Assembly: GCA_008632985.1 (NCBI GenBank)
Contig: QPGO01000152.1
Coordinates: 124,001-188,000 of the forward strand
Direction of reading: 5' to 3'
Source: Psammoneis japonica
Lineage: Eukaryota
DNA length: 64,000 nt
This document shows positions 5,916 to 52,250 of this stretch, piece by piece. Numbering within the stretch: the first letter of the stretch is position 1; the number at the start of each line of letters is the position of its first letter. The notes under the pieces were generated by a model, which was given only the letters and a program-made list of their open reading frames with translations, was not told the DNA's origin and searched no databases. The position numbers and the translations under genes are program-made.

Positions 5916-6152
5916 GGTGAGATGGCTGTGGGATTTTGATCAAATCAAGCTTGGTGAAGCGATCTGCCCTGCGGGTGCTGTGGCACAGTGCAAACCTGCA
6001 GCAGCATGGTGCCAACATGCACACAATGAACAAAATTGTGCAAAATTGTGGACATTTTCAAAAAGAAATGCTCCTTGTAAAATGTTCAAGAAATTGCATT
6101 TTAACAAACATCAAAAAATGAAAAACCAGCGCAAGCCGGACGCAACACTCTG

Positions 6153-6327
6153 TGCAAGATCTGGCTTGAGATGACTTGACAAAAGTTGTGAGAAACTGAG
6201 GAGAGACCCAATCATCGCTGATGTGGGAACAAACCTGATGGTTCTCAGCATGTCTGACACGTTGGTTAACACACATGTGTCAGAGAGGGCACACTTGGTC
6301 ATAGAGCACATGTGCCCATCTCATTCA
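6153..6327 (-). repeat. Gypsy 3' LTR
   Basis: Direct repeat of 11596-11770; TG...CA ends; adjacent PPT. Confidence 0.93.
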
Positions 6328-6636
6328 CTCTTCCCCTCCATGGTGCAAGGAACACGCGCACCATTGGAACCACTTGACTAAAATTCAAACCACACGCACA
6401 CAGAAAAGGGAACCCAGACGTTGGGAAGAAACCCTCAACTCTGATGCGGCACCACACAATGAACATTAATTTGTTCAACAACGTGCAGTGCTTGCAGCGC
6501 CAAAACAGTCCCATTGGCATGGACTTTTGTGCAATTCAAAATGGACCACAAGCTCATTTTTCCAACTTTGAAGGATCCACCGACTTGATTTGTGCATCTT
6601 GACTGGCTGGACAAGATTCTCATTGATCAATGCCTG

Positions 6637-7420
6637 TCAGTTGGCTTGAATTGTTGCAAGGTCAGTGACAACAGGCAGGTCCAAAATCACATCACATTGA
6701 AACACTAGAGCTCCACCGGAAACACCCACAGATCTTGAGTGGGAGCATCGTAAAGCACAAGAGGCTGAAGCAAGGGCATTGTCCACAATCTGCTTGGCCT
6801 GTTGAACATTCAAAGGTGGGTTAGCAACAACCACAGTGCGCAAGACATTGGCCACACCATCTGGTGCATTCATTCACAAATGGAGTTGGCTGTGGGATTT
6901 TGAGACGTTGTCGGCGCATCAGCAACACCTGCTTGATTTAGCAGCATTTGAAATTCCCAACCAATGAATTCTCCACCATTGTCATGGACACATTGATTTG
7001 GTCTGGGATGACAAGCTAACCAAAGGTTGTGAAACTTGTCAGTCACATGCTGACAAGTTTTGTTGTCAATGCACACGAGTTCAGTCAATCCAGTGACAGC
7101 ATCAATGCAAGTGAGAGCACTGAATTCAATCTCTTGGTCTTGAATTGGTGTTTTCCACGGTCCAATGAGATCAACTGCTGCTTCTGTCCACAGAGCCAAT
7201 GGTGCTTGACGTTGAGGCAACTCTCCATGTCCAGGACCCAATTGTTCAAATCGTTGACACGCATCACAAACAAATTCATCACAACATCAACACAATGCAG
7301 GATGATGCATGTGAGCACAAATGCTTTCATACAATCACACGACTCCACAATGGCCCAATGCAGGATGATGCCATGCAAGGACATCCGGCAACAACGCAGT
7401 GGGAGTGCAAATTTTCCAGG
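6637..7420 (-). pseudogene. Gypsy integrase remnant
   Basis: LAWHHPALGHCG zinc-binding remnant; VDLIGPW, LTCIDAVTGL, HDNGGEFIG and NPTANSICE core motifs; stops and frameshifts. Confidence 0.85.
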
Positions 7421-7849
7421 CTCCAGGCGGATCATTCACATGCAAACGACAACAAATGAGAGGACAATGGTTCACAATCTTGACCACAAACTGCTGCGGA
7501 TTCTGTTGTCTCTGTTGGTTCAGTTGGAGGTCTTCAAACTGGAATTGTTGTGTCCTTGATGTCTTGGTGGGATTTGGCATTTCGTCCAACATTGGACAAT
7601 TCAAAAAGCATTCAAACAATTCAGGCTCATCAAGCAAAGAGGAAACGGCAGCATGAGACTCATCAGAAGGATCAACAGGAGCATGGCAACACTTGAACCT
7701 GCAAGCGCCCAACTCCAAATCTTCTTCTTCCTTGGCCTTGCTCAATTCACTAGAATCCAACTTGTCAAAACGAACAATTTTTCCTTTGCGTTTGCCACTT
7801 GGCCCAAGGCTCTTCCCCTCCAAAGGTGGATCCACGCGGGGCAAACAAG

Positions 7850-9015
7850 AAAAACAATCGGCAAGCACGTTGTCCTTGCCTTTGACATGTTCAAATGCTG
7901 GCGCAAAATCTTCAAGGAACAGCTGCCAACAAAGGACGCACTGTGCATTCAAAGGTGTGAAAGGTGAGATTTTTATGGTCAGTGTGAACAGTGATGTCAG
8001 CACCGAGCAACATTGTGTGAAATTCTTTGAAGCACATGACGATGGCTGGGAGTTCTTTTTCCATTGTTGAGCAGTTACGTTGGGCCGCCGAAAGCTTCTT
8101 AGACCAATGCGCCACAGCTTTGCCATTTTGAACAATGGCTGCACCCATCTGGCAGTCTGATGCGTTGGTGCAGACATGGAATGGTGGGTTGTGGTTGGGG
8201 CAGGCCATCAATGCTTCTGCTGCAATTGCTGTCTTCATCTCTTTGAATGTTTTCTGACTTGCTTCCATCCAATGGAACTGACTCTTGCCTGTCAACTCAG
8301 TCAGAGGTGCAAGTGAGTGAGAACGGCAAGGCCACATGTTGCAACAGCAAGTTGCTGCACCAAGAAACAATCAAAGCTGAGCAGTGTTTCGTGGAGGTTG
8401 CATTCGCAGGATGGCTTTGACCTTTTTCTTCCACAGTTTAACGCCAGTCAGAGCAAGCCAATGCCCCAAGAAATCGGTTTCTTGAACACACCACTCGCAT
8501 TTCAACGGATTAACTTTCAATCCATTCTCCTTGAGACGATGCAGCACCTTGTCAAGACGAGAGAGATGGCAATCAAAGTCAGTGTCAAATGTGCCAATGT
8601 CATCAATGTGGGTTTCAACATCCAAACCATGTGGAATTTTCTCAATGACAGATTGAGCAATGTCTGGAGCTGGCTTCAATCCCACAGCCATGCGGCAGTG
8701 CTGGAATTTTCTGTGGGGAGTTGCAATCGCAGCTGGCTCCTTGCTTTTGTTGTCCAATTCCAAGTTGTGGTAAAACACAGTGAGATCAAGTTTCTTGAAG
8801 AATTTGCAGCCCGCTCTCCGCTGCAGCACATCTTGGATGGCTGGTGGAGGACACACTTTCTGTTTGAGGACCTTGTTGAGCTCATGGAAGTCGGACACCC
8901 ATCGCACTTGGCCATCCTTCTTTGGAGCAACAAAGGTGCCGGCTGCCCATTCTGCAGGTTTACATGGTTGCAGTGCACCAAGATCCACTGGATGCTTCAA
9001 TTCCTTTTTGAACAC
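7850..9015 (-). pseudogene. Gypsy reverse transcriptase-RNase H remnant
   Basis: VRWVSDFHELNK, FKKLDL, HIDDI (from YxDD), DFLGHWL; RNase H VCTNASDCQMGA, VAHWSKKL, EKEL, HTDHKNL, KGKDNVLAD. Confidence 0.92.
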
Positions 9016-9027
9016 TTCTTCATTAAC

Positions 9028-9885
9028 TCAAGCAACAGGAAACGGTTTTGAGTGACACAGAATGGCATTTTCATCCACTTCAAGGTGCACCTTTTCATGA
9101 GGATGGTGGCCCAACATTCTGTCAAATAAGGTTGAATGTTTTTCCAATGCCGCCAGCAGCTTCTTCTTTTGCTCTTCCATCAGATGGTCTAAATTCCGAA
9201 CCACTTCCACAGGATCCGTTGCTTTGCATTTGGCGTCTGGCATGCAGGTGTCACATCCATCGTCACATCTGTAGTTTGACTTGTCCTCACAGTCTTCATC
9301 AAACTCATCCATTTGGTCTAGAGCCATGTGCCAATTGCAGGACTTGGACCAATGACGGGGTTCTTTCATTGGGATCACACTGTCCAGCCATTGTAGCATC
9401 CTTGTGTCGTAACTCAAATTGAGGCCAGTCTTGTCCAAGAAATCTTGACCCAAAATGACATCACACGCACACGGAGCATTGAACACGTGAGCCATGCAGC
9501 CATCAATCCTTCGAGTCTTGTCAAACTCTGGCAACACAACATTGCTCAAGGCCACCCAACGACCCGACTGGAAAGGACCTGCAATGGTTTGAAAGGCTTG
9601 GACTCCGCATTCGTCAACAGACGGCACGGCTCCACGAGGTAGAACTTGGGACAAAATCATTGTGTGAGATCCACCAGAATCTAACAAAACACGCATCACA
9701 TGATTTGACTCATGCCGTTGGATCGATTTTGCAACAAGCAATGCAGATGGGACCAATGCGGTGCGCGAGACTTGCAAGTTCATTTTGGGGAGAGGAATGT
9801 TGTGTTCAAATGCATCTCGATCAAACACATCCCCCTCTTCATTCATGTAATTTTCTGCAGCATTTTCAAATTCAACAGGTGACAA
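9028..9885 (-). pseudogene. Gypsy aspartic protease region
   Basis: VLLDSGGSHTMI active-site motif and DVILGQDFL. Confidence 0.85.
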
Positions 9886-10132
9886 TTCATCAGGATTTTC
9901 AAAACGATCAAAAACAAAACATTCATCATTTCATTCAGGCAAAACACAATCATTCTCATCAACAAATGCTTCTCTTGTGGGCAATTGGGAGCATTCAGCT
10001 CCAGAGCATTCAGCTCCTTTCTTCTCAGAACTGCCAAGGAAACTGCCCATCTGGCTGAAACCTCACCACACCGTAATGTGGAAGGCCTCATCTGATCATG
10101 TCAAAATGGTGCACATCACCACGAGGAGCTTC

Positions 10133-11282
10133 TCAAGCCTGGTTGCCATTCACATTGTCTGCTTGAGCAGCACAGCCGTTGGCCTGACCTTGGCCTCCAC
10201 GGTTGTTGTTTTCATTGTGACAATGTTGACCACCACCTTGGTTGCCATTGTTGTTTTGATGCCCATTGTTGTTGTTGTCATTGTGACAGGTGCCACGACC
10301 TCCTTGGTTCTGGTTGCCACGACCACCAAAGCGTCCACTGCCTCCACGGCCTTGACCACGGCCTCCTTGGAAGCAACCTCCGCCTCGACCTCCACCGCCA
10401 CGGCCTCCTCCTTGACCGCCATGGTTCTGAGGCCCATGACAGTTAGGGTTGTTTGGATTGTCATGACACTGGCCCCATGTGTGCCATCCATGGTGCCACA
10501 GGACCGGACACAGATCACTTGCCTTTGGTTGGCTTTTGCTGTCCTTCTTGTTGCGGTTGCCCTTTTTGTTGCTGGAGTTCCCCACAATGCCGTTGTTGGA
10601 CTTGCGTCATTTGTCATCTTGACCGTTGGAAAAACACCTTCTTGTCACTCATGCAGGCTTGAACATCCACCATTGAATCTGCAACAAGGTTCTTGCCCAC
10701 ACGAATGTAAGACTGCTGCCAGGTCAAAGGGAAGGTGTAAAAAATGACATTTTTCTGCTCCTGCTCTGTAAGTTCAGGAACAGTTCCAGGCAAATGGTTG
10801 GCATGACAAAACAATGTTTCCATGTGATCAATGTGAGTTTCAGATTCTGCTGAGCAAGGCTTCTTGCAAGCAGGCAAATGCATCTTCATCGCATCGCAAG
10901 CTGTCAGTTTCATGCAGCACAGACAGTGGGCCAAGACAGCCTGATTAAATTGGGCTGCCGTTTGCTGATTCTGTTGGATGTTCGCGGCAACATTCTGCCA
11001 TTTTGCCTCTGCAGCACCTTGGAGACAATCCTCCAAAGCATCAAACAACTCTGTTCCGGCATCACAGTCCAGCCGTCTTGCTGCCTTCTGGAACCTGTCC
11101 TCCATGTGCAACAATGATTCAATTCCATGCTCTCCTGTAAAAACAGGACACATTTTTGAAAGTTTAGCACCATCATCAAAAGTTTGAGTGAGTTTCACTT
11201 CTTGTAATTCAGAATCCACGAATTTGGTCTTATGCTCAATGCACGCTTTCTCCAAGGCTTCTTGATGCATGGCAATGAACAA
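10133..11282 (-). pseudogene. Gypsy gag remnant
   Basis: Lies between the 5' LTR and the protease; CPVL..HGWHTWGQC knuckle-like motif followed by an RGG/Asn-rich tract. Confidence 0.7.
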
Positions 11283-11595
11283 TTTCAGCGATCAAACAAT
11301 CAACAATCCACAAGATGAACGAAACAAGGCATTCCCAATTGATCCACACAATGAGAACAATCAATGACTAAACAACAACAAATTCAACAGTGGCAACACA
11401 AACTTCGAGTTCAAACAAACGCTGCTCCAAATTGCCAATTTCAAGAGCACAATTGCACTGCAACTCCAATCGACTTTGAATGAAATTTTCTGCACAAGCA
11501 CACAGACAAATTTTCTCTCTTCTCAACAACACTCTTCACATTGTCATAAAACTGATGATGCAATGAACAAGCCACAACAATGACTGCAATTACAG

Positions 11596-11770
11596 TGCAA
11601 GATCTAGCTTGAGATGACTTGACAAAAGTTGTGGGAAACTGAGGAGAGACCCAATCATCGCTGATGCGGGAACCAACCCAACGGTTCTCAGCATGTCTAA
11701 CATGTCAGTTAACACACACACATCAGAGAGGGCACACTTGGTCATAGAGCACATGTGCCTGTCTCATTCA
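11596..11770 (-). repeat. Gypsy 5' LTR
   Basis: Direct repeat of 6153-6327. Confidence 0.93.
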
Positions 11771-12054
11771 CTCTGAAACAAGCCATCGGAGCTCAAGTTG
11801 ATGTTGGCCAGTTGCACAGAATGCATGCTGGACATGCACCAAGGAAAACCCAGACATGTGGCCAACTTTGGCCAAAGCTGGACACAACAAGGTTGCTGCA
11901 GATCTGTGCAGAGAGCCAGGGGTGCTGTCTGTGGGATGCAGGAGATTGCTTGTGCCTGCATGTGCATTTGCTTGTGCGCGAATGTTCCCTTCTCAATGCA
12001 TGTGATGACATCATCACACATCACACACAACCACATCCCACAGTGCCACTGACA

Positions 12055-13966: not shown

Positions 13967-14791
13967 GAGGCCCGCTGGCAACTGATCTGACGCTGATTGA
14001 ACAAGGACAAATTGTTGAAGCCTGCGGTGGAGCCTGTGCAGCCCCACCTGTCCTGTTGTTTAATTGTGTGTCCATGATGCAAGCCATCGCAAATGCAGAC
14101 TGCGACCCGCATCTGGATTCAGTGCTGGGGTGGGGGTTCAAGAATGGTCACATGAAGAAAGACCAAGGGACAACACAAACACAAACACAATCTCACTTTC
14201 TTTCAATCAAATGCACACCACAGCACTGTCTCAGTTTTGTGGGCACGTCACATCCTCCAGTGCATGCCCAGTGTGGTGTGTGGGGTGACGCAAAAATGGC
14301 AACAGCAGCATGGTGTTTGAAGCAGACACCAAAGAAGGCATCTCCAAATGCTTCAAAAGCACATGTGGGCAACCCAGGGCTTGAGTGTCCATTGGTCTCA
14401 CACAGGAGTCAAAAGGAAATTTCTTGCAATCACTGTGTGCTGGCCCTGCTGATGGAAATTGAAGGCAAATGGCAAGAATTCAAACAACAACTCCTCACTG
14501 CTGTCTAAACAGCAGATGAGTCTCCGCTCAGAGACCGTTGCAGGAGCCAAAAGACGTGCAAGTCGGTGTGATCGGGCTGCTGTTGTCATTCTTGTGAGCC
14601 TTGTGGCTCGAAAGCAAACTACATCGCGCGCGAACGCGCGGAACTAAAGCACACAAAATTGTGCGCGGTAAACTAAACAGCGCGCGACATTTCGCACGCA
14701 CCCAAATCCTGTTCAAATCCTGTCACTCCCCAGTTTGCTTGAGGAGTCACAGAAACAGATTCGACTTCGGATTGACTAAAGAACTTTGGAG

Positions 14792-16465
14792 TCAAAGCAC
14801 CAAAACATGAGGAGACAAGAAAGGATCAAGATCCAAGAGCAATGTTGCATTCTCCAAGTGGGTCATCTTGAGATGAGCTGCGTCTCCCCAATTGCAGATG
14901 CCGTTGTGCTTTTCAAAGCTCAAGGCACACTTGGGATCTTGTGGGATTCCACATCTGCACTTGCAATGGAAGGAGCAAAGCTTGGTCTGGTTGACAATGT
15001 TGAACGGCGGGGCAACATTGCAGGCGGCATGGCGTTTGCACGACTCGGGGAACAGAGCAAGCATGAGTTCAAAGGCACAAGCGGTGGTCTTGTGTTCCAC
15101 CAATCTGATTGCAAGCTCAGCTGCATCTCCTGAGAGACTGATCCAATTGGAGAAACGAGTCTCAAGGTGCAAGCCTTCGGGGATCGGATTGGAGCAAGAC
15201 ATCTTGCAGTGCAAGGCTGCAGATGTCTGATTGGGGCAACCAGTCCCGTGCTGCAAGACTTCTGGGATCCAAAAGGACTTGCCAGTCTTGTGACACGAGT
15301 CTTCGGGGATCCAATCAGGAGGCCAAGTCTCGTGGCACAAGACTTGAGAGATCCAATCCGGAGGCCGAGTCTTGAGGTATGAGATGTGGAGGATCCAATT
15401 GGGAGGCCCGGTCTTGAGGCACGAGACGTGGAGAGTCCAGTTGGGAGGCCTGGTCTCAGGGCACGAGACTTGGGGCATCCGATCAGGAGGCCCAGTCTCG
15501 ATGTACGACACTTGGGGCATCCAATCAGGAGGCCCAGTCTCGAGGCACGAGACTTGAGGCATCCAATCAGGAGGCCCAGTCTCGAGGTGCGAGACTTGGG
15601 ACATCCAATCAGGAGACCTGGTCTCGAGGTACGAGACTTGGGGTCCCCAATCAGGAGACCTGGTCTCGAGGTACGAGACTTGGGGCATCCAATCAGGAGG
15701 CCCAGTCTCGAGGTACGAGACTTGGGGGATCCAACCAGGAGGCCCAGTCTCGAGGTACGAGACTTGAGGCATCCAATCAGGAGGCCCAGTCTCGAGGTAC
15801 GAGACTTGAGGCATCCAATCAGGAGACCTGGTCTCGAGGTGCGAGACTTGGGGCATCCAATCAGGGGGCCTGGTCTCGAGGTACGAGACTTGGGGCATCC
15901 AATCAGGAGGCCCAGTCTCGAGGTGCGAGACTTGAGGCATCCAATCAGGAGGCCTGGTCTCGAGGTACGAGCCTGTGCAAGGGCTGCAATCCTGCACTGG
16001 GCCGAGGTTGCTTGCAGGCGGGTTGGTCAAGACATGTGGGGCGCGACTGACACCACTTCTAGGGGACACCTGAGTGGCGGCACAGTGCAAGGCTGGTGTC
16101 AAAATGGCACTGGGTTCATCTGGTTTGGATGGCAAGGGACTCGGCACAGGTGCGGAGGGTGCTGCGCCAGTGGCTAGAGAGGTCAAGCAGTCCGGACCAA
16201 GGCGGCAGTTGCGAAATTCCTCGGGTGTGAGCAACTGGGGTTCATTGGTCACATCATCACCGTTGCAAACTTTGACAAAGCAGAAGCTGATCAAAGCTGC
16301 TAGGAGGTTTCTGTGGGTCCATGGCAAAGGCACTACATTGGCGCCGTCTCTGTAAGTGAGGGTGTCAATTTGGGTGGGTAAGAACGTGAACAATTCCTCG
16401 CACAATTCAATCCCGTTGATGGACAGGGCAGAACGAAGAGGGCTGTCATTGTCTTGATTGAGCAC
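14792..16465 (-). CDS. Copia-derived ORF: gag-like N-terminus, ~20 14-aa repeats, pre-RT fragment (expression unknown)
   Basis: 557-codon open frame; DSPLRSALSINGI...IDTLTY resembles diatom Copia gag starts; C-terminal CGIPQDPKCALSFEKHNG..NWGDA resembles the segment preceding Copia RT. Confidence 0.5.
   Translation of the reverse strand: MLNQDNDSPLRSALSINGIELCEELFTFLPTQIDTLTYRDGANVVPLPWTHRNLLAALISFCFVKVCNGDDVTNEPQLLTPEEFRNCRLGPDCLTSLATGAAPSAPVPSPLPSKPDEPSAILTPALHCAATQVSPRSGVSRAPHVLTNPPASNLGPVQDCSPCTGSYLETRPPDWMPQVSHLETGPPDWMPQVSYLETRPPDWMPQVSHLETRSPDWMPQVSYLETGPPDWMPQVSYLETGPPGWIPQVSYLETGPPDWMPQVSYLETRSPDWGPQVSYLETRSPDWMSQVSHLETGPPDWMPQVSCLETGPPDWMPQVSYIETGPPDRMPQVSCPETRPPNWTLHVSCLKTGPPNWILHISYLKTRPPDWISQVLCHETWPPDWIPEDSCHKTGKSFWIPEVLQHGTGCPNQTSAALHCKMSCSNPIPEGLHLETRFSNWISLSGDAAELAIRLVEHKTTACAFELMLALFPESCKRHAACNVAPPFNIVNQTKLCSFHCKCRCGIPQDPKCALSFEKHNGICNWGDAAHLKMTHLENATLLLDLDPFLSPHVLVL
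15130..15971. repeat. 42-bp tandem array (~20 units, ~15 well conserved) encoding SYLETGPPDWMPQV on the minus strand
   Basis: Unit GGCATCCAATCAGGAGGCCCAGTCTCGAGGTACGAGACTTGG repeats with period 42 and decays toward 15130. Confidence 0.95.
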
Positions 16466-18577
16466 AGTGCCTAGAATGCATTTGAAGCTGTCGGTTTGTT
16501 GCTGTCATGTGAGAACCATGACGGAGGACGGTGCAGTAGAAACAAAAGACAGGATCCAATCTAGAGCGCGATCTTGACTGGGAGTTTTGACTTGGAACTT
16601 GGCTTGAAAAAGACTTGACTTGAGCCAGACTTGACTTGAAATCTTGGACTGTCCTAAAATCAGAAGTCGCCGGGCTGTGCTGTCCCATTTGTTGTCAAGT
16701 GCTGAGCTTCCTATCCGGTCCGTAGAGTTGTGCCGGCACGTCCGAACCCGCAGCCAGCGGCGCTTTGGGTTGCTTACGAGTGGAGCAGCGGGTTGTAAAC
16801 CCCTGCAGGCAAGCTGACTAGAGGTGGACAAGACCCCCGAACCGTTCTTATTTTACATCGGTTGGATTTCCCGATCAGGCTGGCCAGTTGACGTAGGCGC
16901 AGGTGCTGTGGACGAACGAACAAACGCGGGAAAACACCCTCGCCCCAACGCAGGCTGCAATCACGGCTGCTTGCTCTCACAGTCGTCCTCGTGGACCTGG
17001 CAGAACTGCAGAGCACCAGTGGTCCGGGGCAGATCAGGTACAATGGACTCGGCGTGCTTGCAGAGTGGCAGCAAAGCTGCAGTCCAAAGAGTGGGTTCAA
17101 GTCCTTGGCCGTGAAGATGTGTGTGCACACATGTCTTCAGCGACGGAGATCCTTGAACATGTGGGGTTCTTGACCGTTAACCGTTGAATGGGCAGGGCCT
17201 GTGTCACGGGATGAGGATCAAGGATGGGCTTGGATGTGACCGTTCAATGCATGTCTTCAGCGATCAAAGGTGGCATGATCAATCCAGATGTCCAGCGGTG
17301 AGGAGACTTGACGGTGACGTTAACTTCCTGCCGATGCCCTGGCATTGGATGCGCGCAGACTTGCCGATGTGCGTAGAACATGTGCGGAGGTCCACGCAGA
17401 ATTGAGACAGTGCTGTCGGCAAATCAACGACGACGATGGCGGTTGCTCAATGGGTTGACAATGAGCAAGACTGTTAATCTGACAGAAATTGAAGGCAAAT
17501 GGCAAGAATTCAAACAATGACTCCTTGCTGCTGTCTAAATGGCAGATGAGTCTCCGCTCAGAGACCGTTGCAGGAGCCGAAAGACATGCAAGTCGGTGCA
17601 ATCGGGCTGCTGTCATCATTCTTGTGAGCCTTGTGGCTCGAAAGCAAACTGCATCGCACGCGAACGCGCGGAACCAAAGCACACAAAACTGTGCGCGGTA
17701 AACCAAACAGCGCGCGACATTTCGCGCGCACCTGAATCCTGTTCAAATCCTGTCACCTGCGCTGCCTCTCTTCTTTGAGAGCAGCAGGGTTGTTGCAGAG
17801 CAAGCTGCCTGTGCCAGGAGACAAAAATGCATGAGTGCTGCTGGCACTGCTGACTGAGCTGTGGCTGCATTGTGCACACATGCCAGCATGCTCTGTGCTC
17901 TGCAAAAATGAGACAAGAGCACAAAAGAGCTTGTGACCAGAGCTGGCACTCTGCAAGAGCGGCTTTCAATGATGATGATGCACGGCAAGCTCAAAGAGCT
18001 CCTGCGGGGCACTTTTGTCAACTTTTTGGATTGGAAGACAAGAATGCAGTGCTTGACAAGTTGTTGGTGTGAGAACACAGAAAAATGAGATGCGACAAAA
18101 ACCACCAACAAGTGCCAGCAGGTTCTGAAGTCTGCGGAGGCACCAGGAGGTTTGCCAGCCATTCTTGCCACAGCACCAGTGCTTTTCTAAAACTGAATGT
18201 TTGCGCACATCACAAGAACAAAGCAAGAGACAAGACACTCTTTCACACGTGCATGTAGGAACGAGGGCGGCTGCGAAAGCACGCACAGCGAGGCGCTGAC
18301 AGTGACTGGCTAGCAGGGGGTCAGACGGTCGGTGATGCGATGACGTTTCGTGCCTGAAGACATGGCCTTCAGTCGTCACTCTCGCCAGTTATTTACAGTG
18401 ACAGACGCGGCAGACAGCAAGACGATCGTTTTCCCGCCATGTTATGTATGCGTGTACTCAACCGCATCAACGCGAAGTGATGGTGAGATGTGAAGATGGG
18501 TGAGTGCCGTGAAAACACTCGGCACTCGGCACATCCATCGCAGAGCGCAACTGTGCCAACACTGTAAACGAAACTAA

Positions 18578-26241: not shown

Positions 26242-26871
26242 GGTTGGTTGCGTTTAGGGGGAGGGCCACTTGTTGTTATCCTGCCAGTGCCTAATTATTG
26301 AGGATGGGCGGTAAAGTCACATCAAAGAGGGACATGTCTGCTTCTTTCGTTTTTTCGGAACGTGACCATGGCAACAGATTGAAGTACAAGTAAGGACGAT
26401 GTATCTCCTCACAAGTGGAAGCGCCCTTTGTATTTTCTAGAATCCTATCAATGCACTTCCTTGGAGGTAAGGCGCTGGGTTACAGGGGTAGCTTAACTCC
26501 TCACAGCCAAAGTCGATACGTACAGCTTTTCGCCCTGATGAGCCTCCCTTTTATTCTCAACACTTTCTCCCAGAAATTTACACACGCGGAACTGCATGGG
26601 CTAGAGAGCAGGGTCAAATGACAAGCCACTACTAGCTACAGTAGGTAGAGCTGTGTCCCACACTCCACCGTGTAGCGCCAACGTCCACAAATTACATCGC
26701 GTGAACGTAGAAGTACTGTACCTAGGCAGGAGAATCTCGCTCTGTGCATGAACCCCGAGCTGTGCGAGTAGGTACTCTAGCTACTCGTACCAGTAGTGTG
26801 CAGGACAAGGAGGCTCTCGCTAGCTACCTACGGCACTCAACAGCTACTCTATTCGTCCAACGTCACAATAT

Positions 26872-27326: not shown

Positions 27327-27624
27327 TATAAGTAATACATTTTAAAAAAGCTGAATACGACGATAATATCGGGCAATAAATAAATCCTGTTTTAGAATAT
27401 GACGGAGACACCATCTACTGCCCCTTCTCATCTTGAGAATGGGCGGCACAGCCAGATAGATAGGTCGTCTCATAAAAAAGTCAGAAACGGAAGATTGAAG
27501 AAGTCTCAAATCTTTTTTTCGCGATGGAAGGTGTCACCTGATAATGCACGAACCTACTCTCCTTCAGCGCAACTTCCCTCCAACAGAGGAGAGAGAAGAA
27601 AGTCCTCTTTCTCCTGCGGGCACC

Positions 27625-35005: not shown

Positions 35006-38000
35006 TTATAAGACTCATGGAGAGGTCACTCGCAATCAATACCAACAGCAACTACCGGTAAGTCTTTGTTTCGAGCGAGGCGTCATCGTCATCGTCTCGT
35101 CGTGTGGCTCTTGTGCAGTGCGCGCATCGCGCTGTTCGAGGTGTTGCTGGTGTTGTCCGTGTGTCTTGCTGACAGCATTTACTTGTGCTTGGGCTGGGCT
35201 AGCTAGCTGCCATCACTTTGAGTTTGCTTGTCGACTTGCCCTTGCCATTGTCGCCATTGAGAGACCACCCAAAAACAAGCAACCCTCTTTGAGGACAAGC
35301 TCCATCCCTGAGTGTGTTCTTTTTTCCCAGTGGTGCTTTTCTGGAACTTGTGGGCCGGGGGTGCAGGCATCTGGGTGCAGCAGCAAAAATGGTGATCCAC
35401 TTTTTTGGTGAAAGTGGTCCCATGTGTGCATGCTCTGCATCACAACCCACCCCAACTTCTAGTCTCCTCCTCTCTCCTCTGCAGTGCTCATGGCCAAGAC
35501 ATGGAGGGGTCATCATGTTGTGGACGTGGGTTTTCTTGATGTCATGAACCATGTCTCTCCTTCCTTGTCCCTGTGAGCTGTTGTGAACAGTGTGCAGAAG
35601 CTGTCTCAATGCTGTTGTCAAGCAGCAGCTTTGTCAGAGAGAAAAGAGGAGGGAATCCACGCACATGCAATGGTGCAGCAGTGTTCATGTCATCAAGGCA
35701 ACAACTGTGCCATGAACCATGAAGTGCTTGAACGAAAAATGTCCCATGGACGCCACGGCGACAGCTGGTCAACTGAATCTTTGGCTGTGTTTGAGATGAC
35801 GGGTCCAAGTTTTCTGAGAAAGCTGTGCCAGGGAATTGCACCATGTTTCGGCCAGTCTGCATGTCGAACAGCAGTGACTCTTTTGACTTTGCAAAGATTC
35901 ATGATTTGCAGGACGATTGCATTGACTGGACTTTGTTCCTTTCTGACACAATGCTTTCTTGGATCAATCGATGAGTGCCACACACTCCATCGCACACTCC
36001 GCACAGCAACATCACTTGACCGAACTGCAACAATTCTCCAAAGAAGTCTCTGGAACCTTTGCTCAGAAACCCTTCAATCTTGGTGCGGATCCCAAGCTCG
36101 CATCCAAACCCACACATTGCAATGCCCATGGTTCCACAACTTCTGCCTTTTCCATGCAGATCGAGATGCTCACACTTGTTGTAAATGTGCAAAACGCAAC
36201 TGTTTGGAGATTCTGTGTCAAATGATGTGCCATTTTCATCCTTTGTCTCCATGTCAATTAAACATGGCAATGTTGTTTCATTGTCACAGTCGGCAAAACT
36301 CTCACAAAGCCAAAGTCTGCCCAAGTTCATGTCAAACAAATTTGCCTGAAGTCCAGTCTTTTTGTCCATGACATGAATGCGAGTGGGACAAGGACACTGT
36401 GCACAGTGATGCACTCCCTTGCAGCAGGCAATGATTCTGCCAGCTCTGCTTTCCTCTTCATGACAGCATTCAAAGGGTGGAAAATGACAATCGTTCTCGT
36501 CAAAAAAGTCTGGCAAATTCAAGTGAAGAACAAAACCACTGTCTTCAGTGTTTGTTGCCATCTGACAAGTGTCTGCAAAGGCGCATTGTGTGGTGAAATC
36601 ATTCAACAAACATCCGTCCATCTCGATGATGAGCGCGCATTTGGTGGCATTGAGTTTGGCACCACATCCCGGATCTGCAGGCCCAGGCAGCGTTGCTCCT
36701 TCCAACCTTTCTTTTTGGTCCTGATCATGAGTTTTCCGGGTGTCAATTGCCTCAACTCGGTCGTGAATCCTTTGCCTCAAGAGTTGTTTCCAGTCAATGT
36801 TGTCATTGCTGCTGCTGCTGCCCTTGTCATCTACTCCTTCTGAAACAAACCTGACTTGTGCTTGCAAGATGGGGGCGTGCTGCTTGCATCCAAACTGCAA
36901 ATCACCCAAAGGAATCTTCTTGTCATGAGAAGAGCACTCCAAAAGTGTGGTCACAACTTCCTTGACAAACTCCTTTTCAGAAATCTCAAATTCATTTGTT
37001 GGATTTTTGTCTTCTCGGTGGGTGGAGCAGGGGAGGTTGTGGATGCCATTTTAAAACTTGAGACAGTGTGTCATGGCAACAGGGAAGCAGCAAAAGACAG
37101 GCTTCAGGATGATGCTGTGCTGGCAAAAGGCAAATGGGGCCTGCTGAAGCTGAGCAGCAGGATGATGTTTTCAGTTTCCAAGATGATGCCGAAGTCTGGA
37201 AGTCTGGCTGAGTGCTGCCACGTTGAGCGTGTGGACGAACGTGCGTGCAGTGCAATGACTTGTTGCTCGACCTGCACAATGAATGGGGTGGACATGTTCT
37301 TGCACACCAGCAGGGGGTGGGTGATGATGTGTGCAAATGGACAATGTTCAACTCATGCATGCTGCGTGCCAAGCAAATGCACCCAAGTGCACTCATCTCT
37401 GACAGCTGTTGGCATCAGAAAATCATTGAATGTTGTGCACACTCTCCAAGGGAGTCATTTTCTCAGCAGGCAACTTCTGCCACCATCAGTCTTGCCAGTG
37501 CTGTCTGTGCGTGTTTGTGAAACTCTGCGCCACTTCGCATCACCACCACTTCCTTGGCTTGGTTGACAGGCTCGCCCCTTGCTGTTCCACACATGCCCCC
37601 ACAGGGTCCTCAGGCTGTTTGCTTTGTGACTTTCAAAGTTTCCACATTTGACATGACTTTTGGAGTTGCCCTTGCTTTGTGTCCTTCAAAATTTCCACAC
37701 CCAGCACAACTTTTTGAGCTGCCCTTGTTGTTTTCATCAGCTCAGCACCCCAGTGCATCAATGCTCAGAGCCCCTCCCCAACTCCTCCTCTCTGTGGCAA
37801 CTGATGCTCATGGCCAAGATTTGGAGGTCATCATGTTGTGGATGTGGGTTTTGCTTTACCTTTTGTGCCATGATTCTCTGTCCTTGTTGTTGTGAGCAGC
37901 ATGCAAGCAACAACAAAGCTGATTTTTGCTTGCCAGGTTGCCACATTTTCAGAGAGAAGAAGAAGAGGAAACTCACAATGGCAACTTGGTGTGCTGCTTG

Positions 38001-39949
38001 AATGGCATGCCAGGAGCTGTGGTGCACTGGGCACCCCACCCATGCCACAGCCATTGGGTGTTGAGTGGGGGGGGGGGGGTGAATGCCACTGCCACGTCTC
38101 CAAAATGTGAGAGGGAGTGCGGGGTGTTCATGTTGACTGCCTCCAGCAGTGCATCAGCAAAACCCATCAAGAGCATCTGCAGCAAGTGGCAACAAGAAAA
38201 CAAAGGAGGTGAGATGGAAACTGTGGCATGAGCTGGATGGGTGCATCTGGTGTGGAAGCTCAGCCTGGCAGTTGAGGAAAATGCAGGGAGAGATGACTCA
38301 GAAGGAGCCAGCAGACTTCAACAGCTGCCAACTTCTGTTTGTGCAAGCCTGCACTTTTGCAGATGCAACCACTGATGGCACTTGCAAACTTTGGTCATTG
38401 CTCTCAGAAACCCTCCTCTGGAAAATGGATTTGACCTCCAGATGATGGCACTGAGTGACTGCTCACTCTTCAGCAAATCTTGTCACCAGCCACTTTTGCA
38501 GACATTCAGCAGCAGTGTGTCATTGCCACCTTGTGTTGATGACCCACATGACATGTCACAATTTGAAAAGCTGCACCTTTGTCTGTCAACTTTTGGCCCT
38601 TCTTGTTCTGCTGTGGCCAGCTGAGACAAGAAGGGAGGAGCGAACTTGCAGCTCTGCCCAAGCCAGAAAATGCCTTGATGATTGTGTGTAAAATGCACAA
38701 GGAAGGGCAAACATGTTGTGACAATGGTGCGCACTCAAGAAGACATTCCAGGTGAGGAGCATGTCACCATGTTTGTTGCACGTGTGTTCTTGAGAAAAGT
38801 GTTTCCAACTCATCTCAAAACATGTGCCAACCCAGTTGGCAACTTTTTGGATGTTTCAGATGTGTTCAAGGTGGTTGACACAGTTGGCTTTTTAATTTAG
38901 ATGTTTGGTGTTTGGTGTGGTTAGAGTTTTTTTAGATGTCCAGCAAGGTGCCAGCTGGACATTCTTCATTGGCCATGCAGCTCAAACAATGGGTTGGCAA
39001 TTTTTTGGAGACATTTGAGTTGAGCTTGGCTTGTGAGACATTTGAGATGGGCCGGCAATTTTTTTGGATGCTTGAGACACCTTGGCAGTTTTTTTTCTTT
39101 TTGCGTGAGCTGGTTGGAGCTCATCAAAGCTGCTGATGTGCGTGTGTGCTCGCACAGGTGACAACAAAAATCACATGTGCCAGCAAATTCAATTGAAGTG
39201 TGTCTGCACACTGGCATGTGTCACATCACAACTCAATTGCGCAATCTTCCTCACCCACAAGAGGTGTCTTGAAGTGTCAAAAACCCAGATTCCAAGTGCA
39301 AACCACAACAAAAAGCATTGCAGATGTGTGCGCACTTGACAATGAAGAACTTCAACATCTTTAACAAAATTGGATGCTCCAGCCACCACACCACACTTTA
39401 AAAGGTCTGTCTGGTTTTCTGGACTGCTCGCTCCTTTTTGGATCTGTGACTCTAGTGGACAAAAGAGCTCCAGCAGTGTCTTGCTGATTTTTCAGTTAAA
39501 AAAAATGCTGTGCAGCGTCCAGCAAATGTGAGAAAAGTGCGTTGTTCACAAAGCCCTGAATGGCACACTGCCTTGCTGGTCAGGCAATGTCCAAAGAGAT
39601 GTTTGAAAGCAGAGTTCTCTGTCAGCTGCAGATTGTGAACAAACCACACAAACAGATCTCAGATGTTCTTAAATGTGCATGATGCAAGAGGTGTGGTCAA
39701 AAGGCCACAAGACACTGGAAAGTTCTGCTCAATCAAGATCCAGTGATCAAGCTCCAGCCATCTGGCAGTTGACACATCAACTTTCTTGTTCTGGATGGCA
39801 ACAAGTGGGGTTGTGCAATGGGCATTGTGTGTGTAATTTGTGCTTCCTTTGGCACTTCCCACAGACAGTGCTTGGAGAGAATTTGAGAGCCACACCATCA
39901 TTTTTTGACAGCACACTTGTCTCCACCACATTTGTGAAAGAACTCAGCA

Positions 39950-41250
39950 TCATGTTGGTGCCAAACCCACCATTCTCAGAAAGAGATGGGTTTTCCTTTT
40001 TGATCAGATCAACCTGCCATTTGTTGAGCCAAAATGGACATTTGTGTTTGTGGTGCCATTGTCCCTGACCCCAGCAGCAGTGCTTGTGGCCCACAGAACA
40101 ACTCTCTGGAATGAGCTCATGCAGCATGGGGAAGACAAGAAATGTCATTTGCTGGAAGTCTGTCACTCTGCAAAGACAACAAATGACAAAAACATGGTCA
40201 ATTGTTTGAGCATTTTGTCATCCAGAGATGCCTTTCAAATGGCAACAGTGCAATCTAGGAGGAAGATGATTGGCAGAAATTGGCACTGATTGCTTCAACA
40301 GAGGTCCACTGTTCAAACTTTATGGCAACATTGACCTCATTTGGAAGCCAGTCTGCAACGCACACAGAGCTCTCAAGTTCATGTGAATTTGCACAATGAT
40401 GATGTGGCGCCATCCTTTTGCTTGCAACTTGTGCAGGAAAGTCAGCTGGCTCCAAAACTTTGGCACTTTTTGCTTGTTGCACTTGGGCCCTGAGGAAATG
40501 CCATGACAAATCTTGTGAGCAACTTGGTCTAGCCACCCATCTTTGTGATGAGGCTGATGAGAAAAAGTGCTCATGATGATGGCAGGAGAGAGCACAAAGT
40601 GTTGCATCTTTCAAACAGCTTCCAGCAAGAATTCTGCGTCATGTTTTGAAAATTTGCACAATGACCAGATGGGTGCTTTTTTCTGCAATTTGTGCTGTTG
40701 GCACTTGAGTGTGAAGAAAGTGTGCTCTGTGTTCTGTGTTGTCCAAGCTCAGCTGCCTGCAGGCCATGCATCCATGATGCATCCAGCAGAAGTGTTTGTT
40801 GCCAGGGCAGTGCTCCATTGTCCATTGCAGAGGCCAGGAATGTGGTGCACACCAAGAAAACACAGGCAAGAAATTGCACTTCTGCTCAACCCATGGGCTG
40901 CAGTTTTGCATGAGTGAGGAGATCAACAAACCTTGGGATTGGCACAACCAACACATGATTTTACATCTCCATTTGAGATGCCACGTGTCTTTGCACTGAC
41001 TTTTTCTTGGTCTCTGCTCTGCTGCTGATCTTTGCAAACACACAGTTGCACCTTGAACAGAGCAGACCTGCCTGGGCCAGCCTGTGTTCCTCCGTGGCAG
41101 TGATCTTTCAGTGCCAAGACTTGCTGCACAATTGAGTGGGCCATCACTGACAAAAACACCACCAAATGCTTTGTCTGCATTCCACAACAAAATGATCAAC
41201 ACATTTGCAGTGACACACCACTGGTCAGATGAAAGACAAATCAATTTTGC
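39950..41250 (-). mobile_element. Probable non-LTR retrotransposon remnant (RNase H and C-terminal region); second copy at ~43840-44190
   Basis: FVSDG, LEPADF and HCANSH(E) resemble decayed LINE RNase H motifs; ~40100-40180 and ~40425-40645 align with ~43840-43920 and ~43985-44190. Confidence 0.4.
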
Positions 41251-41699
41251 ACAAATTGTGAGAAGACAAGAACACAACAGCTTTGGTGTCAGAAAACGGT
41301 TTTGCCATGTTGTTTGCATGGGCCCACCTTTTGGCCCCTTGTTTGTGGTCACTTCTCTTGTGAGCTCCTCTGTCATCAGCAGTCTTCATTGCAAAATGCT
41401 GTGTCTCATTTGCTGTTGTCTCCCTTCACCAATCCAGCCACAGGGACATGTTGAGAATGCAACAAAACCACAACAGGCATTCTCTTGTTTGCTTGTTGTT
41501 TTTTCTCACAACAGTGAGAAGACCACAAGAGCTTCTCAGCTGTTGCAAGCCTTGCACTCTACAGAGCCTCCAACAGCTGAGCTGGCCACACCCTCAACTT
41601 GGTTTGTTTGTGGTTTGCAGCTCTCTTGTCTGCACCTTGTGTGACATTGGCGCACAATCTGCTGCAACTTCAAACACATTCCTGCAACAAGATTGGCTC

Positions 41700-43300
41700 T
41701 GCTGGTGAGTCAGGTGAGTTCACAATTCACTTCCAGAGCTTCAAGGCACCATGCAAGATTTCATGAAGAAATCAGCAATCATGACATCCACTGGATGGTG
41801 CTCAATTTGCACTTCAACATCCCAATCCTTGATGTGCTGGTCACCAGCAATGAAGAAATGTCTGATGTTGAAGTGTCTTGTCTGTCTGCCACTGGTGGCT
41901 CTTCCATTTTACTCTGGCAGCATGGCACTCTGGTTGTCTTGGTGCACCACATTGTGTTTGACCTCACATCCTTGGGCTGCCAGAAAATGCCCAGTCCAAA
42001 CAACCAGTGGCGCGCTGTTGTCCATGCCTGCCAATTCCGCCTCAGCCAAGCCTTTTGCGTTTGGTTTCTGCTTGGTCAACATGGAGTGCACAGATCCCTT
42101 TCCTGGAGACATGGCCACGCCAGTGTGATTCTTGCACTCCTGGTGGACAGCCAGGAAAGGAAGCATCTGTGCCTGTCATTTGGTGGCAAGGTCTTGATCT
42201 GCCTCCAAAGTTAGAACCAGGTCCTCAGATCTGTTTGGATGCTGTGCTCACCTTTGCAGCCTTTTCCAGTGATCTTCCAGAGGAGCTGCCACCCAAGCAA
42301 ACAGAAACAACACTTCAGTTTGAATGTTGGGACAAGCTTGGAGGCATGCTGGGCAGAGGAGTTTGGCAGCCAGATGGTGGTGTGCCTCAGCCTGGTCTTT
42401 TGACAAGGGTTGGAACTTGTTGCTGGTGTCCACTGTGAACAGGTTTTTGCATGCCAGGTCAGGTGCAATGCCATTCATGGATTTGACCTTTCCATCTTCT
42501 GAATGATGCCCAGGTGGTCATGTGTCTTTCGTTGGTGGATGGTGACAGGAGTCAATTCTCTGTGCTTCTTGTTGAGCTTGGCAGCTGTGTCTTCTGGCAC
42601 CTCCTGTTGCTCTGTGTGGGACAGTTTCAGGTCATTAAAATGCCACACTGTTGTGAATTGCTGACGGTTCACAACCTTGATGACCAAACACCAGTCATGT
42701 GGGTTCATCTCAAACCAAAGGTCTTGGCATGAGAATGAGAAAAGATTCTTCCAGAATGGTGGAGCTGCTTGTTGGGTCCTGCACAATCTTTTCTTGAGTT
42801 CAACATGCCTTTTTCCCATCACCATGCACTTGCGGCACTTCTTGGGATCCACCCAATGCAACAATTCAGCAATTGTTTTGCCTTGGCTGCCTTTGATTCC
42901 AACATGGACCAACTCATCCATGTCTGTGTGCGCATGGATGCTCTGGGAGTCAACAGTCATGACTTGTGCACAGACAAGAAAAGGGCTTGATTGCTCAATG
43001 CAAGGCAGAGCTCTTGCACACACATTGCTTTCTTCAATCAGCACAACCTCTCCCTTCAATGCTCCCATCTCTTTTCTGCTTGAAGCACATCAGGCACCAA
43101 AGTCCATCCTTTTTCTGTTCCCTGGACAAATCATTGGCAAACACAGGCTGCGCCACATTGTGTGAGTCCAGCTGCCTCATCTCCTTGACCACAGCATCTG
43201 CTCTAGCCCTTCCAAGCACCTTCCTCAAACCCTTTTTCAAGGACATTTGTTCTGTGAGGAACAGCACTCCTGCTGGGTCTTTGAAGTGTTGTGTGACCAG
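41700..43300 (-). mobile_element. Ty1/Copia pol remnant (RT-RNase H)
   Basis: QMSLKKGL, KQKRDGSIEGRGCAD, FEMNPHDWC, VWHFNDLKLSH, HTGVAMSPGKG, KQKPNAKGLAEAEL, VHQDNQSAM. Confidence 0.9.
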
Positions 43301-45371
43301 GTGGAGCTGACGGTCAAGCTCCTTGCCATGCCAGTGTCAGTGGTCTTGCTCTCTGTGTCTTTGGTTGCAGGACTCCATTCATCTGCCACACATCTGCAGC
43401 TCATGTCATCAACCATTTGATTGCATTCTTTGTTTTCTGATTCATCATCAGAGTCTTCATGAACTCCGAGTGTTGGGGGTTCATCTTTGTCCTTGCCATT
43501 GCTGGGGAGACATCATTGATGGTGCAGTTGGCATCTCTGGGAATGAGGTTGGGAACATTGGCCAGCTGTGCTGTTGCTGCATCTTTGTCTTCCTCCACTC
43601 CTGTGTGTTCCCCAGAGAATCTGAGTTGTTGTCATGGGCCCCCCCAGGCTGTCAGTGTCTCCTGTGTCTCCCACTCCTGGGGTGCCCACCTGTTGAATGT
43701 CATTCACTCCTGTGTTTTTTGGTGGCTGGCGTGCACCCACTTTTGTGTTTCCTCAGGTGTTGGACACATTTCTGTTTGTCTCTCTGTGGCATTGTCACCC
43801 CATGTTCCCACTTGCTGTGCTTGTGGTGGCACACAGAGTCACTCTCTAGGATGAGCTCATGCTGCAGCACATGGAAGACAAGGAACATCATTTTCTAGAA
43901 GTCTGTTTCTTGGCAGACACAGCCAATGACACCAAATCAGGTTTGCACCCTCCTGTTTGACCCAATGTTTTCTGGAAATTGACCCATGTTGAGGAAAGTG
44001 AGTTGGCTCCACAACTTTGACACAGCACACTTGTGCACCTGGGCTTCAGGATGTGTGGCAACAAATCATGTCAGCAACTTGGTCCAGCCACCCATCTTTG
44101 AGACAAAGCTGACAAGATGCACCTCCAATGACAACAGCACACAGCATTGCATTTTTCAAAAAGCCATCAGCAAGAGTTCTGTTTCATGATTGGAAAATTT
44201 GCAATGGCCAGACAGGTGCTTGATGTGATTTTTCATGCTGCTGGTTGCTCATTGAGCAAAGAAGGTGTGTTTTTTGTGTCATCTGAGTTCAGTGGCAGGT
44301 CAGGTCCACACACTTTTTTGTGGAAATGCTTGTTGTCAGAGCGGCACTCCAGCCACAGAGGCAAAGAATGCAGCATGTGAGTTTGCAGTTTTTTTTGCGT
44401 GGGTGGGGTGATCAACAATGAACACTGGAGTCAGCGCAGCAACACATTTCATGTCTCTGTTGACACAGTTGACATCCTCCTTGCCACACCAGTTTTTCTT
44501 GGTTTCTCTGCACTGCTGCTCTCCCCTGCAAATGCATTGTTGTGCGTCAAACTCAGCAGCAGACCTGGGCTGGCCCATGCCTCCCAAGTTGATGCTCAGA
44601 AAACAGCTTTGTTGCATTGCCTTGATGGGCTCACTGCATTGCTCACCCTTGTTTGTGACACATTGGTCCATTTCTGAAAATGGGTGCCATCATGAGACGA
44701 CACTGTGCCCGCTGGGTTTGTGTGGTGGAATGGCAAAAAAGGCAAAGAGTTGGTTTTTCCAAATTGCTCTTTTTCGCAGCATTTTTTTTGTGTGGCTCTG
44801 CAGCCACAGACTGAGCTGCCAACTTTTTTGTCATCAAGCACAGATCTGGCTGAGAAGAAGCCACCAGCCACATTTTGTCATGCTGCTTTTTCTTTTCTGT
44901 TGTCCTTGCGTTTGTTTTTGCAAGCTTGAGCGCTTGCAACGCAACTTGCTGAAACGACCATGCTTCATCAAGTGCATTGAGCAGTTTGGGAACAAAGATG
45001 TTCTAGTGCAAAGCTCTGCCAGACAAGGTGTCTTTTTGCACGTGCCACAACAGGGGCAGGGCACGGCCATGAATCGTTTCCCTCCTGTTGTCATCATGAC
45101 AAGAAGCATCGACCACTGCTGGCGGCGGCGCAGCAGAGGCACGCATGCATGTGTGTTGCTTGCTGCAATAGTTAGTTGATGTGGGTTCTGCCACGTCACA
45201 GCCCCATTTCCACAGAGCCCTGGTCAGGGGTGAGCCTTACTGTACGGTAACTTCCTTGTGCATCAAAGAATATATATCTTATATCCCGTATCTCGTAACA
45301 CTGTTGTCTTCAGTCGTCAGTTCCTTTGTTGCTTGATGATTGAGTTCGACTTGACGTCGAGAAGCGTAGCA

Positions 45372-50929: not shown

Positions 50930-52250
50930 AGGTGCATGGACTTTTAAAATGCCAAATGCTGAAAAACTAAAAAGCCATGAGAGATGCGATGATGAGAGCA
51001 GAGAGTGTGGTCTCAGCAGCAGAGCAAGTAGAGATGAGGCAGAACACTGCACATGAGTCAGGAAGATGCAGAGCAAAACTGCAAAATGCGGGGCACCAGA
51101 GCAAACTCTGTTGCGTGTGCTGGCAACACGCACCCCAGAGGCAAAGAGCCCAGAGCACCTGGGGGGTTTTTGATCGCAAGGAAGTGGTCAGCCCAAGACA
51201 AGGAAGAAACACAAGGAACAATCTTTGTGCTAAGATCTGTGGTAGAATCCCATGCACTGGTGGATTGTGATGTCAGCTGTGGTGCTGCACGTGCTTTTGA
51301 TGCGCAGCTGTCAGCGGCGACAAGCCCGCAAGCCATCCGGCGCTGCAAGTGCCATCACCACAGGGAACAGAACTCATCATGACAGCCATTGTCAATGATA
51401 GACAACGCAGGCAGCCAGAGAAAGCTCAAGGAGCTTTTTGTTGACAGGTGCATCTGTTGAACAACTCTGCTCCCAACTTGAGCTTGTTGCGGACTCAACT
51501 TTGGAGAGAGCACACTGGAAGTCAACATGGGAGCATGTTGTCTCTTTGTCCTGAAAAATGTGGTGCCCAGCCAAAGGTGTCTGCCTTGCTCATTGAGTGC
51601 AGTGTGTTGAAACAATGTGTCAGCAGCTGCAGGCTCCAGAAAAGTTGGCCGCTGGATGAAACCATCATGTCAGCTGCAGCAGCTGCACAGCCCAGCAAAT
51701 CAGGGCAATTGATTTTTCCTCATCTGGTTTCCTTGACTTTCCTCATCTGAGGAACATCAGGGTTAAATGAAAAGAGTTCCCTGCAACAAAAAAACTGGGC
51801 TGAGCCAGAGGAAGAAGTTTTGTCCCCACTGTCTTCGCGCACAAAGCTGCCCACTCCTCTCAGTGCCTCAGCTTGTCCACATCTTTCTTGGCGGCCTGGC
51901 AGCCCACAACAAATAAACAAGTGCAGCTTTGGCTCACAATGTGGTGCAACCAGAAAACAGCATTGGCATCATCTTTCTTGGTGGCCTCGCAGCCTGCAAC
52001 AACCCAAGCAAGCGCAGCTTCGGCTCACACTGTGGTGCAACCCAGCCAGAAAACAGCCTTGAACTGGCATCTTTCTTGGTGGCCTGGCAGCCCACAACAA
52101 CCCAAACAAGCACAGCTTTGGCTCACACTGTGACGCAACCAGAAAACAGCCTTGGCGTCTGATCACGGCTCTTCACACACAGCATGCTTTTGTGAGCGGC
52201 CCAGCCATTGTTGTTTGGACATCCACACACATCACGACCAGTGGCTGCTT
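50930..52250. repeat. Small TpA/CpG-depleted repeat island with a three-copy ~90-bp tandem repeat
   Basis: CATCTTTCTTGG(C/T)GGCCT...CAGAAAACAGC units at ~51880, 51970 and 52068. Confidence 0.75.

Follow-up and report, generated by a model that had tools for sequence, protein, structure and literature searches.

Repeat-induced point mutation (RIP) of ascomycetes hypermutates repeats by transitions at one fixed dinucleotide, C>T changes at CpA creating TpA. It depends on RID/DNMT4 (PMC9998398), takes place ahead of meiosis, is triggered by homology, mutates both members of a linked duplication, kills transposon reading frames and distorts dating by long terminal repeats (LTRs). Another process, described by Mettrop et al. 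(bioRxiv 10.64898/2026.01.13.699255, 2026), consists of de novo A>G/T>C changes at TpA only, about 1000-fold over background per generation and in some lines only, in viral DNA integrated in Bigelowiella natans, where the target is silent in transcription and does not have to be a repeat; this preprint proposes ADAT2 as a candidate enzyme and suggests an extension to transposons. The present analysis concerns 64,000 nucleotides of the diatom Psammoneis japonica (contig QPGO01000152.1, positions 124,001 to 188,000; the whole stretch is called the window and all coordinates refer to it), and a Ty3/Gypsy retrotransposon located at 6153-11770. The footprint in this diatom DNA carries the same signature as the Bigelowiella process, which is in print once.

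The likeness to the integrated nucleocytoplasmic large DNA virus and virophage DNA of B. natans lies in A>G/T>C changes confined to TpA, on both strands, local and on foreign DNA, in TpA-poor, CpA- and TpG-rich tracts, and in the restriction to foreign or mobile tracts while host genes are spared. In the window, the observed/expected ratio of TA is ~0.1 in the block holding the element (0.11 in element DNA) and ~0.3-0.9, about 0.55, in gene-bearing stretches. The two cases also differ. The host of the former is a rhizarian, here a stramenopile; the reported ratio in the viral region is 0.45, whereas the diatom block is saturated; the diatom case involves retrotransposon copies with an internal clock. 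CG decay accompanies the diatom process, and the words CpG, diatom, context and trinucleotide are absent from the main text of Mettrop et al.; a 3' base preference and a neighbourhood dependence have been measured in the diatom. As for the rate, the ~1000-fold excess over background in B. natans compares here with at least 100-fold over other A>G, a relative excess. Like fungal RIP, the diatom process loads repeats with transitions at one particular dinucleotide, disrupts transposon reading frames and distorts LTR dating, but it destroys TA rather than making it and acts on A:T pairs.

The gapless alignment of 6153-6327 with 11596-11770 displays 17 mismatches and no indels over 175 bp. Fifteen of them replace one pyrimidine-purine (YR) dinucleotide by another; ten of these belong to five TG/CA double swaps, two are TA/TG and three CG/TG. 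The two remaining background changes are one other transition and one transversion. The counts of mismatches, of YR classes and of background changes agree with those of the initial annotation of this DNA, made from the letters alone. When 17 transitions are placed at random on the LTR, at least 15 YR-to-YR changes arise in 105 of 100,000 trials, and at least five swaps in 1 of 100,000. The pattern extends to the family: in 13 LTR pairs, the window pair included, 215 of 234 mismatches are YR-to-YR.

The swaps had been interpreted as two independent hits on an ancestral TA or CG, and the states found in other copies uphold this interpretation. The LTR search of the genome returned 41 matches, a lower bound; 60 genomic stretches were retrieved, and 36 other LTR copies served for the site states. 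TA is seen at all five swap sites (in 18, 15, 8, 6 and 13 copies) and CG at none, so that a reconstruction of every swap site as CG, the outcome that would speak against the interpretation, is not what the ancestral states give. At the first TA/TG site, 25 copies have TA and 7 have CA; at the second, 18 have TA and 12 have CA. Because CA also occurs at both, TG is excluded as the source state. Two of the three CG/TG sites have CG in 27 and 28 of the 36 copies, while the third falls at an indel, with C in 31 copies and TA in none.

The whole element was examined in 21 copies or pieces, retaining columns with TG and CA each at least twice. Among these 437 polymorphic columns, 219 also contain TA only, 170 CG only, 17 both and 31 neither. 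Copy L043 is the least depleted, with a host-like composition (TA 0.61, CG 1.02), and serves as the reference for loss; without it, the four classes hold 171, 173, 10 and 80 columns. CG-type columns are hence almost as frequent as TA-type ones in the element body (170 versus 219 of 437), which qualifies the prominence of TA. At the first, conserved residue of the reverse transcriptase motif, 11 of 18 copies encode Tyr, 4 His and 3 Cys, as fits TAY becoming CAY or TGY (Y, pyrimidine). From site states, column classes and this residue together, it follows that both TA and CG feed TG/CA and that C>T alone is excluded. A process acting by C>T only, either CpG deamination or classical RIP (CA>TA), with TA-bearing copies being derived, would account for the 170 CG-type columns, as CG>TG/CA is real, and diatoms are reported to encode the RID-related DNMT4 (PMC9998398). 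Columns with TG, CA and TA and without CG cannot come from one state by C>T, however; element DNA is TA-poor instead of TA-rich, and the motif tyrosine gives the direction independently. This explanation is refuted here and retains practically no probability.

Of the 231 TA of L043, 28 persist in the window copy, while 112 have become CA, 83 TG and 2 CG; of its 275 CG, 87 persist (32%), the lowest CG retention of the 20 copies compared. The four closest relatives of L043 (91-93% identical) keep 12-20% of TA and 67-85% of CG, the TA loss to TG or CA reaching 80-88%. The closest of all, L033, retains 13% of 230 TA, has turned a single one of them into CG, and has 85% of its CG intact; outside YR steps it differs from L043 by 1.56% transitions and 0.04% transversions. 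These values correspond to 1.6-2.1 hits per TA site and 0.16-0.40 per CG site, a ratio of 5-13 that is a lower bound because of saturation. Private changes, counted in nine hit copies, amount to 28/4390 (0.64%) for CA>CG, 47/4240 (1.1%) for AA>AG, 33/3819 (0.86%) for GA>GG, 13% for CG>TG and 45/23744 (0.19%) for transversions. The A of TA having received about one hit each, the specificity is at least 100-fold over other A>G. A secondary activity at CA, apparent at 5-10% against L043, was discarded as it dropped to 0.64% once only private changes were counted.

These figures also bear on repair. Polymerase eta favours WA motifs (W, A or T), AA included. Error-prone repair by a polymerase of this type, triggered by the G:T mismatches that result from methylcytosine deamination, would write A>G at TA, in keeping with the fact that TA and CG losses share blocks. 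This is very unlikely: AA>AG, at ~1%, does not exceed the GA or CA changes and lies at least 100-fold under those at TA, a result that largely refutes it; moreover, there are hardly any transversions at TA, L033 shows saturation of TA with 85% of its CG still intact, and there is no local clustering.

In the same nine copies, A>G outside TA is three times commoner before a pyrimidine (74/5282) than before a purine (34/7167), in parallel with the on-target preference, and CT>TT is also elevated (42/2909). Weak off-target activity is possibly at the origin of both. To note, L039, L049 and L042 (contigs C160 and C265) form a subfamily ~81-83% identical to the rest that is partly depleted (TA 0.37-0.51) and loses TA and CG at similar rates.

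The rate depends on the base located 3' of A. According to branch ratios (14 copies, 252 sites), the relative rates are 3.3 for C, 2.1 for T, 1.35 for G and 1 for A, with a strand factor of 0.91. DNA outside the Gypsy family (178 depleted versus 272 normal 500-bp bins, none from the family) gives T 7.7, C 5.8, G 2.6 and A 1 in an additive two-strand model (R2 0.99), TA survival in depleted versus normal bins ranging from 0.4% (ATAT) to 42% (TTAA). The two estimates concur on the order TAY > TAG > TAA. Strand coordination is absent, r lying between -0.014 and 0.012 in eight distance bins (14 copies). The window pair had suggested strand-coordinated clusters, six of its seven TA-type sites being TG in one LTR; the 14 copies show none. 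Copy-to-copy agreement at hit sites is 0.58-0.71 versus 0.55-0.56 expected from context. This near-expected agreement and the lack of strand coordination indicate that most hits postdate insertion.

An artefact of sequencing or assembly, in which a modified base at TA is miscalled, would follow context and recur across copies; the agreement observed is too low for this, and whole copies of the same Gypsy family are nearly untouched. Furthermore, 7 of the 8 contig pieces listed for run X1 (1,889 bases, depth 32-45) are identical to the window. This single read set could stem from the very sample that was assembled, its library not being on record, and none of the exact contig pieces listed spans an LTR swap site. 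Other letters listed in the X1 read contigs belong to other family copies and are uninformative on ongoing mutation. Taken together, an artefact is extremely improbable.

The surroundings of a copy matter. The 5' or 3' identity was assigned for 55 LTRs, of which 45 were kept after leaving out 8 beside a non-depleted interior and 2 without flank; an LTR that retains half or more of its TA-type sites counts as spared. Sparing is observed for 8 of 16 LTRs next to TA-normal DNA and for none of the 29 next to depleted DNA (Fisher p 6e-5), and extends inwards over 100-300 bases of the element. Depleted DNA flanks the window copy on either side and both of its LTRs are mutated, while the two LTRs of L043 are distinguished by only 4 of 175 columns. 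The near-untouched state of L043 and the sparing of LTRs by neighbourhood establish that repetition is not sufficient and that position matters. Position rather than homology decides which LTR is mutated, which suggests that the dependence reflects chromatin domains. Both features of RIP that were examined, C>T at CpA creating TpA and homology-triggered mutation of both duplicates, fail here: in contrast to RIP, one LTR or a whole copy can be spared in the diatom, by neighbourhood. A special protection of the 5' LTR (7/10 versus 1/6 spared beside normal DNA, p 0.12) is not established, and is confounded by the TA-rich half being outermost in the 5' LTR.

That the change starts from TA, is specific to it, follows insertion, treats both strands alike, is unclustered, prefers TAY over TAR (R, purine) and depends on neighbourhood can be regarded as firmly established. 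As a whole, these observations are probably best explained by a post-insertion TpA hypermutation, most likely through adenine deamination in silent chromatin. After each insertion, a fast process confined to repeat-rich blocks turned A:T into G:C at TpA, one hit per TA site on either strand yielding TG or CA; these products are no longer targets, and the process saturates. A slower second process converts CG into TG or CA. Two LTRs mutated on opposite strands of one TA exhibit a TG/CA swap. The blocks may correspond to silent, CG-methylated chromatin, and the CG loss to deamination of 5-methylcytosine; DNMT5a is reported to methylate transposon CG in Phaeodactylum (PMC9998398), and C5-methyltransferase matches are present in the genome. 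Such a hypermutation would serve genome defence.

The TA change itself is quite likely the work of an enzyme that deaminates DNA adenine to hypoxanthine. A protein of the TadA/ADAT2 fold is the foremost candidate for the responsible enzyme, at somewhat less than an even chance. An ADAT2-like protein is encoded on contig C26 (best solved-structure match ADAT2, E 8e-12) and a TadA-like protein on contig C38. TadA/ADAT2 and the adenine base editors resemble the diatom process by A>G with a 5' pyrimidine, the TadA-derived editors being reported to prefer YAY over YAR (PMC12528748), paralleled here by TAY over TAR, and to exhibit a TAC preference (PMC9126838). Two A_deamin proteins are also encoded, on contigs C40 and C79. 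The latter weakly matches ADAR catalytic domains (E 1e-4); a search found 296 relatives, of which the named ones are all from diatoms and contain this domain alone. This candidate single-domain ADAR-like protein, encoded beside a second family member here and in other diatoms, is unlikely to be the enzyme in question. Its gene, the second adenosine-deaminase (editase) gene (L081/L082, contig C79 344558-345390), harbors a DCHAE motif and exists in addition to the C40 gene.

A lesion of thymine has also to be considered, in which the T of RTA is oxidised in silent blocks to 5-hydroxymethyl- or 5-formyluracil and mispairs with G, leading to T>C. Formyluracil pairs with G, and TAY>TGY is indistinguishable from RTA>RCA through the symmetry of TA. 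In dinoflagellates, 5-hydroxymethyluracil is made by TET/JBP, marks transposons and reportedly replaces T preferentially in TA and TC (PMC11572971). TC steps are not hypermutated in the diatom, however (GA>GG 33/3819), and a Tet_JBP (PF12851) search of the genome gave no match, a weak argument as no positive control responded. Oxidised thymine is an improbable source of the changes.

Several points weigh against TpA hypermutation by adenine deamination as outlined above. No evidence links any enzyme to the process, and since ADAT2 is universal and the ADAR-like paralogue diatom-wide, their presence proves little. Engineered TadA editors accept CA too, which in this diatom is not a target, CA>CG being not above AA or GA. 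A single-stranded-DNA deaminase might leave strand-coordinated clusters, and none was found, though many saturating rounds could erase them. TA being self-complementary, sequence alone cannot separate an A lesion from a T lesion. The two context estimates differ over C or T as the top-ranked 3' base, and copy agreement slightly exceeds expectation, so that some hits may be inherited or a longer context may matter. Finally, half of the LTRs beside TA-normal DNA (8/16) are mutated anyway, and depletion is incomplete in several whole copies, without explanation.

These results add diatoms and retrotransposons to the known reach of TpA hypermutation, which so far is in print for a single rhizarian alga. 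No report of it in diatoms was found in the literature searched, from which subscription journals were mostly absent. A metagenome scan with the reverse transcriptase stretch gave a single distant relative among 236 candidates (29% identity, TA 0.79), uninformative on other diatoms. LTR pairs represent an internal clock that reveals the speed and specificity of the process, and its fingerprint, an unclustered and position-dependent change of TA only in which TAY is preferred over TAR, is a yardstick for candidate enzymes. A broader proposal, for and against which we see an even balance, is that diatoms run a dedicated, chromatin-guided A-to-G DNA editor. Shortly after an element has inserted, this editor would remove TpA from transposon blocks, beginning with TAY, and would halt close to the edge of active host DNA. 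Such a defence would be the chemical opposite of RIP, either shared with Bigelowiella or convergent on its process, and driven by a natural DNA adenosine deaminase of stricter TA specificity than engineered editors. If true, such a natural deaminase of DNA adenine would matter for genome defence and for base editing.

A direct consequence concerns LTR dating, as the process makes affected elements look several times older than their real age. The 13 LTR pairs differ at 234 of 2304 columns (10.2%), comprising 52 swaps, single changes of the TA type (69) and of the CG type (42), other transitions (11) and transversions (8). Outside YR steps, only 11 of 1135 columns differ (1.0%, interval 0.5-1.7%); ordinary LTR dating thus inflates age about tenfold over these pairs. 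For the window pair alone, a raw distance of 0.104 compares with a background of 0.012 from one or two events (a single change among 84 non-YR columns; 95% interval 0.0003-0.065), an overestimate of 5-9-fold with a wide interval. Private non-YR changes along the window copy (6 transversions in 2049 columns) are consistent with 1-2%. The overestimate proposed in the initial annotation therefore holds for the family, whereas for the window pair it depends on those few background events. The element had also been described as young yet heavily mutated: the second term is correct, but it is not among the freshest copies, as it keeps 32% of CG versus 40-85% elsewhere. Transposon ages in diatoms have been derived from identity at a constant mutation rate (bioRxiv 10.1101/2025.10.24.684338). 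Such ages can be inflated about tenfold in genomes having TpA hypermutation.

The window element is a dead Ty3/Gypsy retrotransposon of a pennate diatom (Table 1); the top-ranking named relatives of the eIF3d encoded in the window are pennate diatoms (68% for Seminavis). It shares with other Ty3/Gypsy elements the order protease, reverse transcriptase, RNase H, integrase (on the minus strand), the location of the integrase downstream of the two preceding domains being the Ty3/Gypsy arrangement, as well as TG...CA LTRs, a polypurine tract and a 5-bp target duplication, whose presence at both edges confirms the exactness of the LTR coordinates first proposed. As the polypurine tract adjoins position 6327, the left repeat is most simply the 3' LTR. 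Unlike its relatives, the element has its pol broken into several open stretches, all seven listed stopping at TGA, and its tyrosines are almost gone (1 of 218 residues in the reverse transcriptase stretch versus 19 of 583 in a host gene). Pfam searches gave no match for the open stretch with the protease-like motif nor for the two in gag position. A tRNA gene search of the window found none.

Table 1. Features of the element and TA-depleted blocks of the window (TA and CG as observed/expected ratios).
Feature	Position	Strand	Basis or remark
Target-site duplication CTCTG, left copy	6148..6152	.	sequence
3' LTR, 175 bp, TG...CA; 2 TA remaining	6153..6327	-	3' identity suggested by adjoining polypurine tract and gene order
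Polypurine tract adjoining 3' LTR	6328..6341	-	sequence
Open stretch with integrase core match	6870..7286 (match 6873-7286)	-	PF00665, E 2.8e-5, under curated cut-off
Open stretch with RNase H match	7912..8370 (match 7915-8370)	-	PF17919, PF17917
Open stretch with reverse transcriptase match	8371..9027 (match 8374-9027)	-	PF00078, E 3e-17; motif HIDD
Open stretch with LLDSGG aspartic-protease-like motif (~9670-9700)	9028..9930	-	motif read from sequence
Two open stretches, putative gag	10133..11291	-	position
5' LTR, 175 bp, TG...CA; 4 TA remaining	11596..11770	-	sequence
Target-site duplication CTCTG, right copy	11771..11775	.	sequence
TA-depleted block holding the element	1..~18200	.	TA mostly 0.0-0.2, up to 0.43 around 42-bp array; CG 0.1-0.8
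Second depleted block	~35300..45000	.	TA 0.0-0.14; CG mostly 0.03-0.15 within 37500-44500
Small depleted block with short repeats	51000..52000	.	TA composition and repeats

Other repeats of the window have also been observed. A second direct repeat pair of 278 bp (14449-14726 and 17479-17756, 3030 apart) has 21 of 22 mismatches of the YR-to-YR type, with seven swaps, and encloses a 42-bp tandem array (~15159-16046) that retains more TA than its surroundings. Short dispersed repeats at 26860-27336 and 30264-30473, in TA-normal DNA, retain TA and are further repeats that escape. In the second block, 37500-44500 is depleted in CG as much as in TA, unlike the Gypsy block (CG ~0.4), and is probably older or more heavily methylated DNA. 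This block ends sharply at ~45000-45200, just ahead of a patatin/cNMP (NTE-like) gene.

Elsewhere in the genome, the C5 DNA-methyltransferase matches L089, L090, L091 and L095 (contigs C301 and C297) sit in TA-depleted DNA (TA 0.07-0.11), some with stops; they are probably mobile-element-borne methyltransferases themselves mutated. A 490-residue frame on contig C79 (L075:316-1785) fuses a zinc-dependent deaminase domain (HAE...PCVMC) to DIOX_N and a 2OG-Fe(II) oxygenase. An Atlas search for this fusion returned only dioxygenase-alone clusters, under 0.9, and the protein probably acts in nucleobase metabolism. Lastly, a two-domain dCMP deaminase gene (L071/L072) has an identical second-domain protein on contigs C41 and C317, which are possibly haplotigs.

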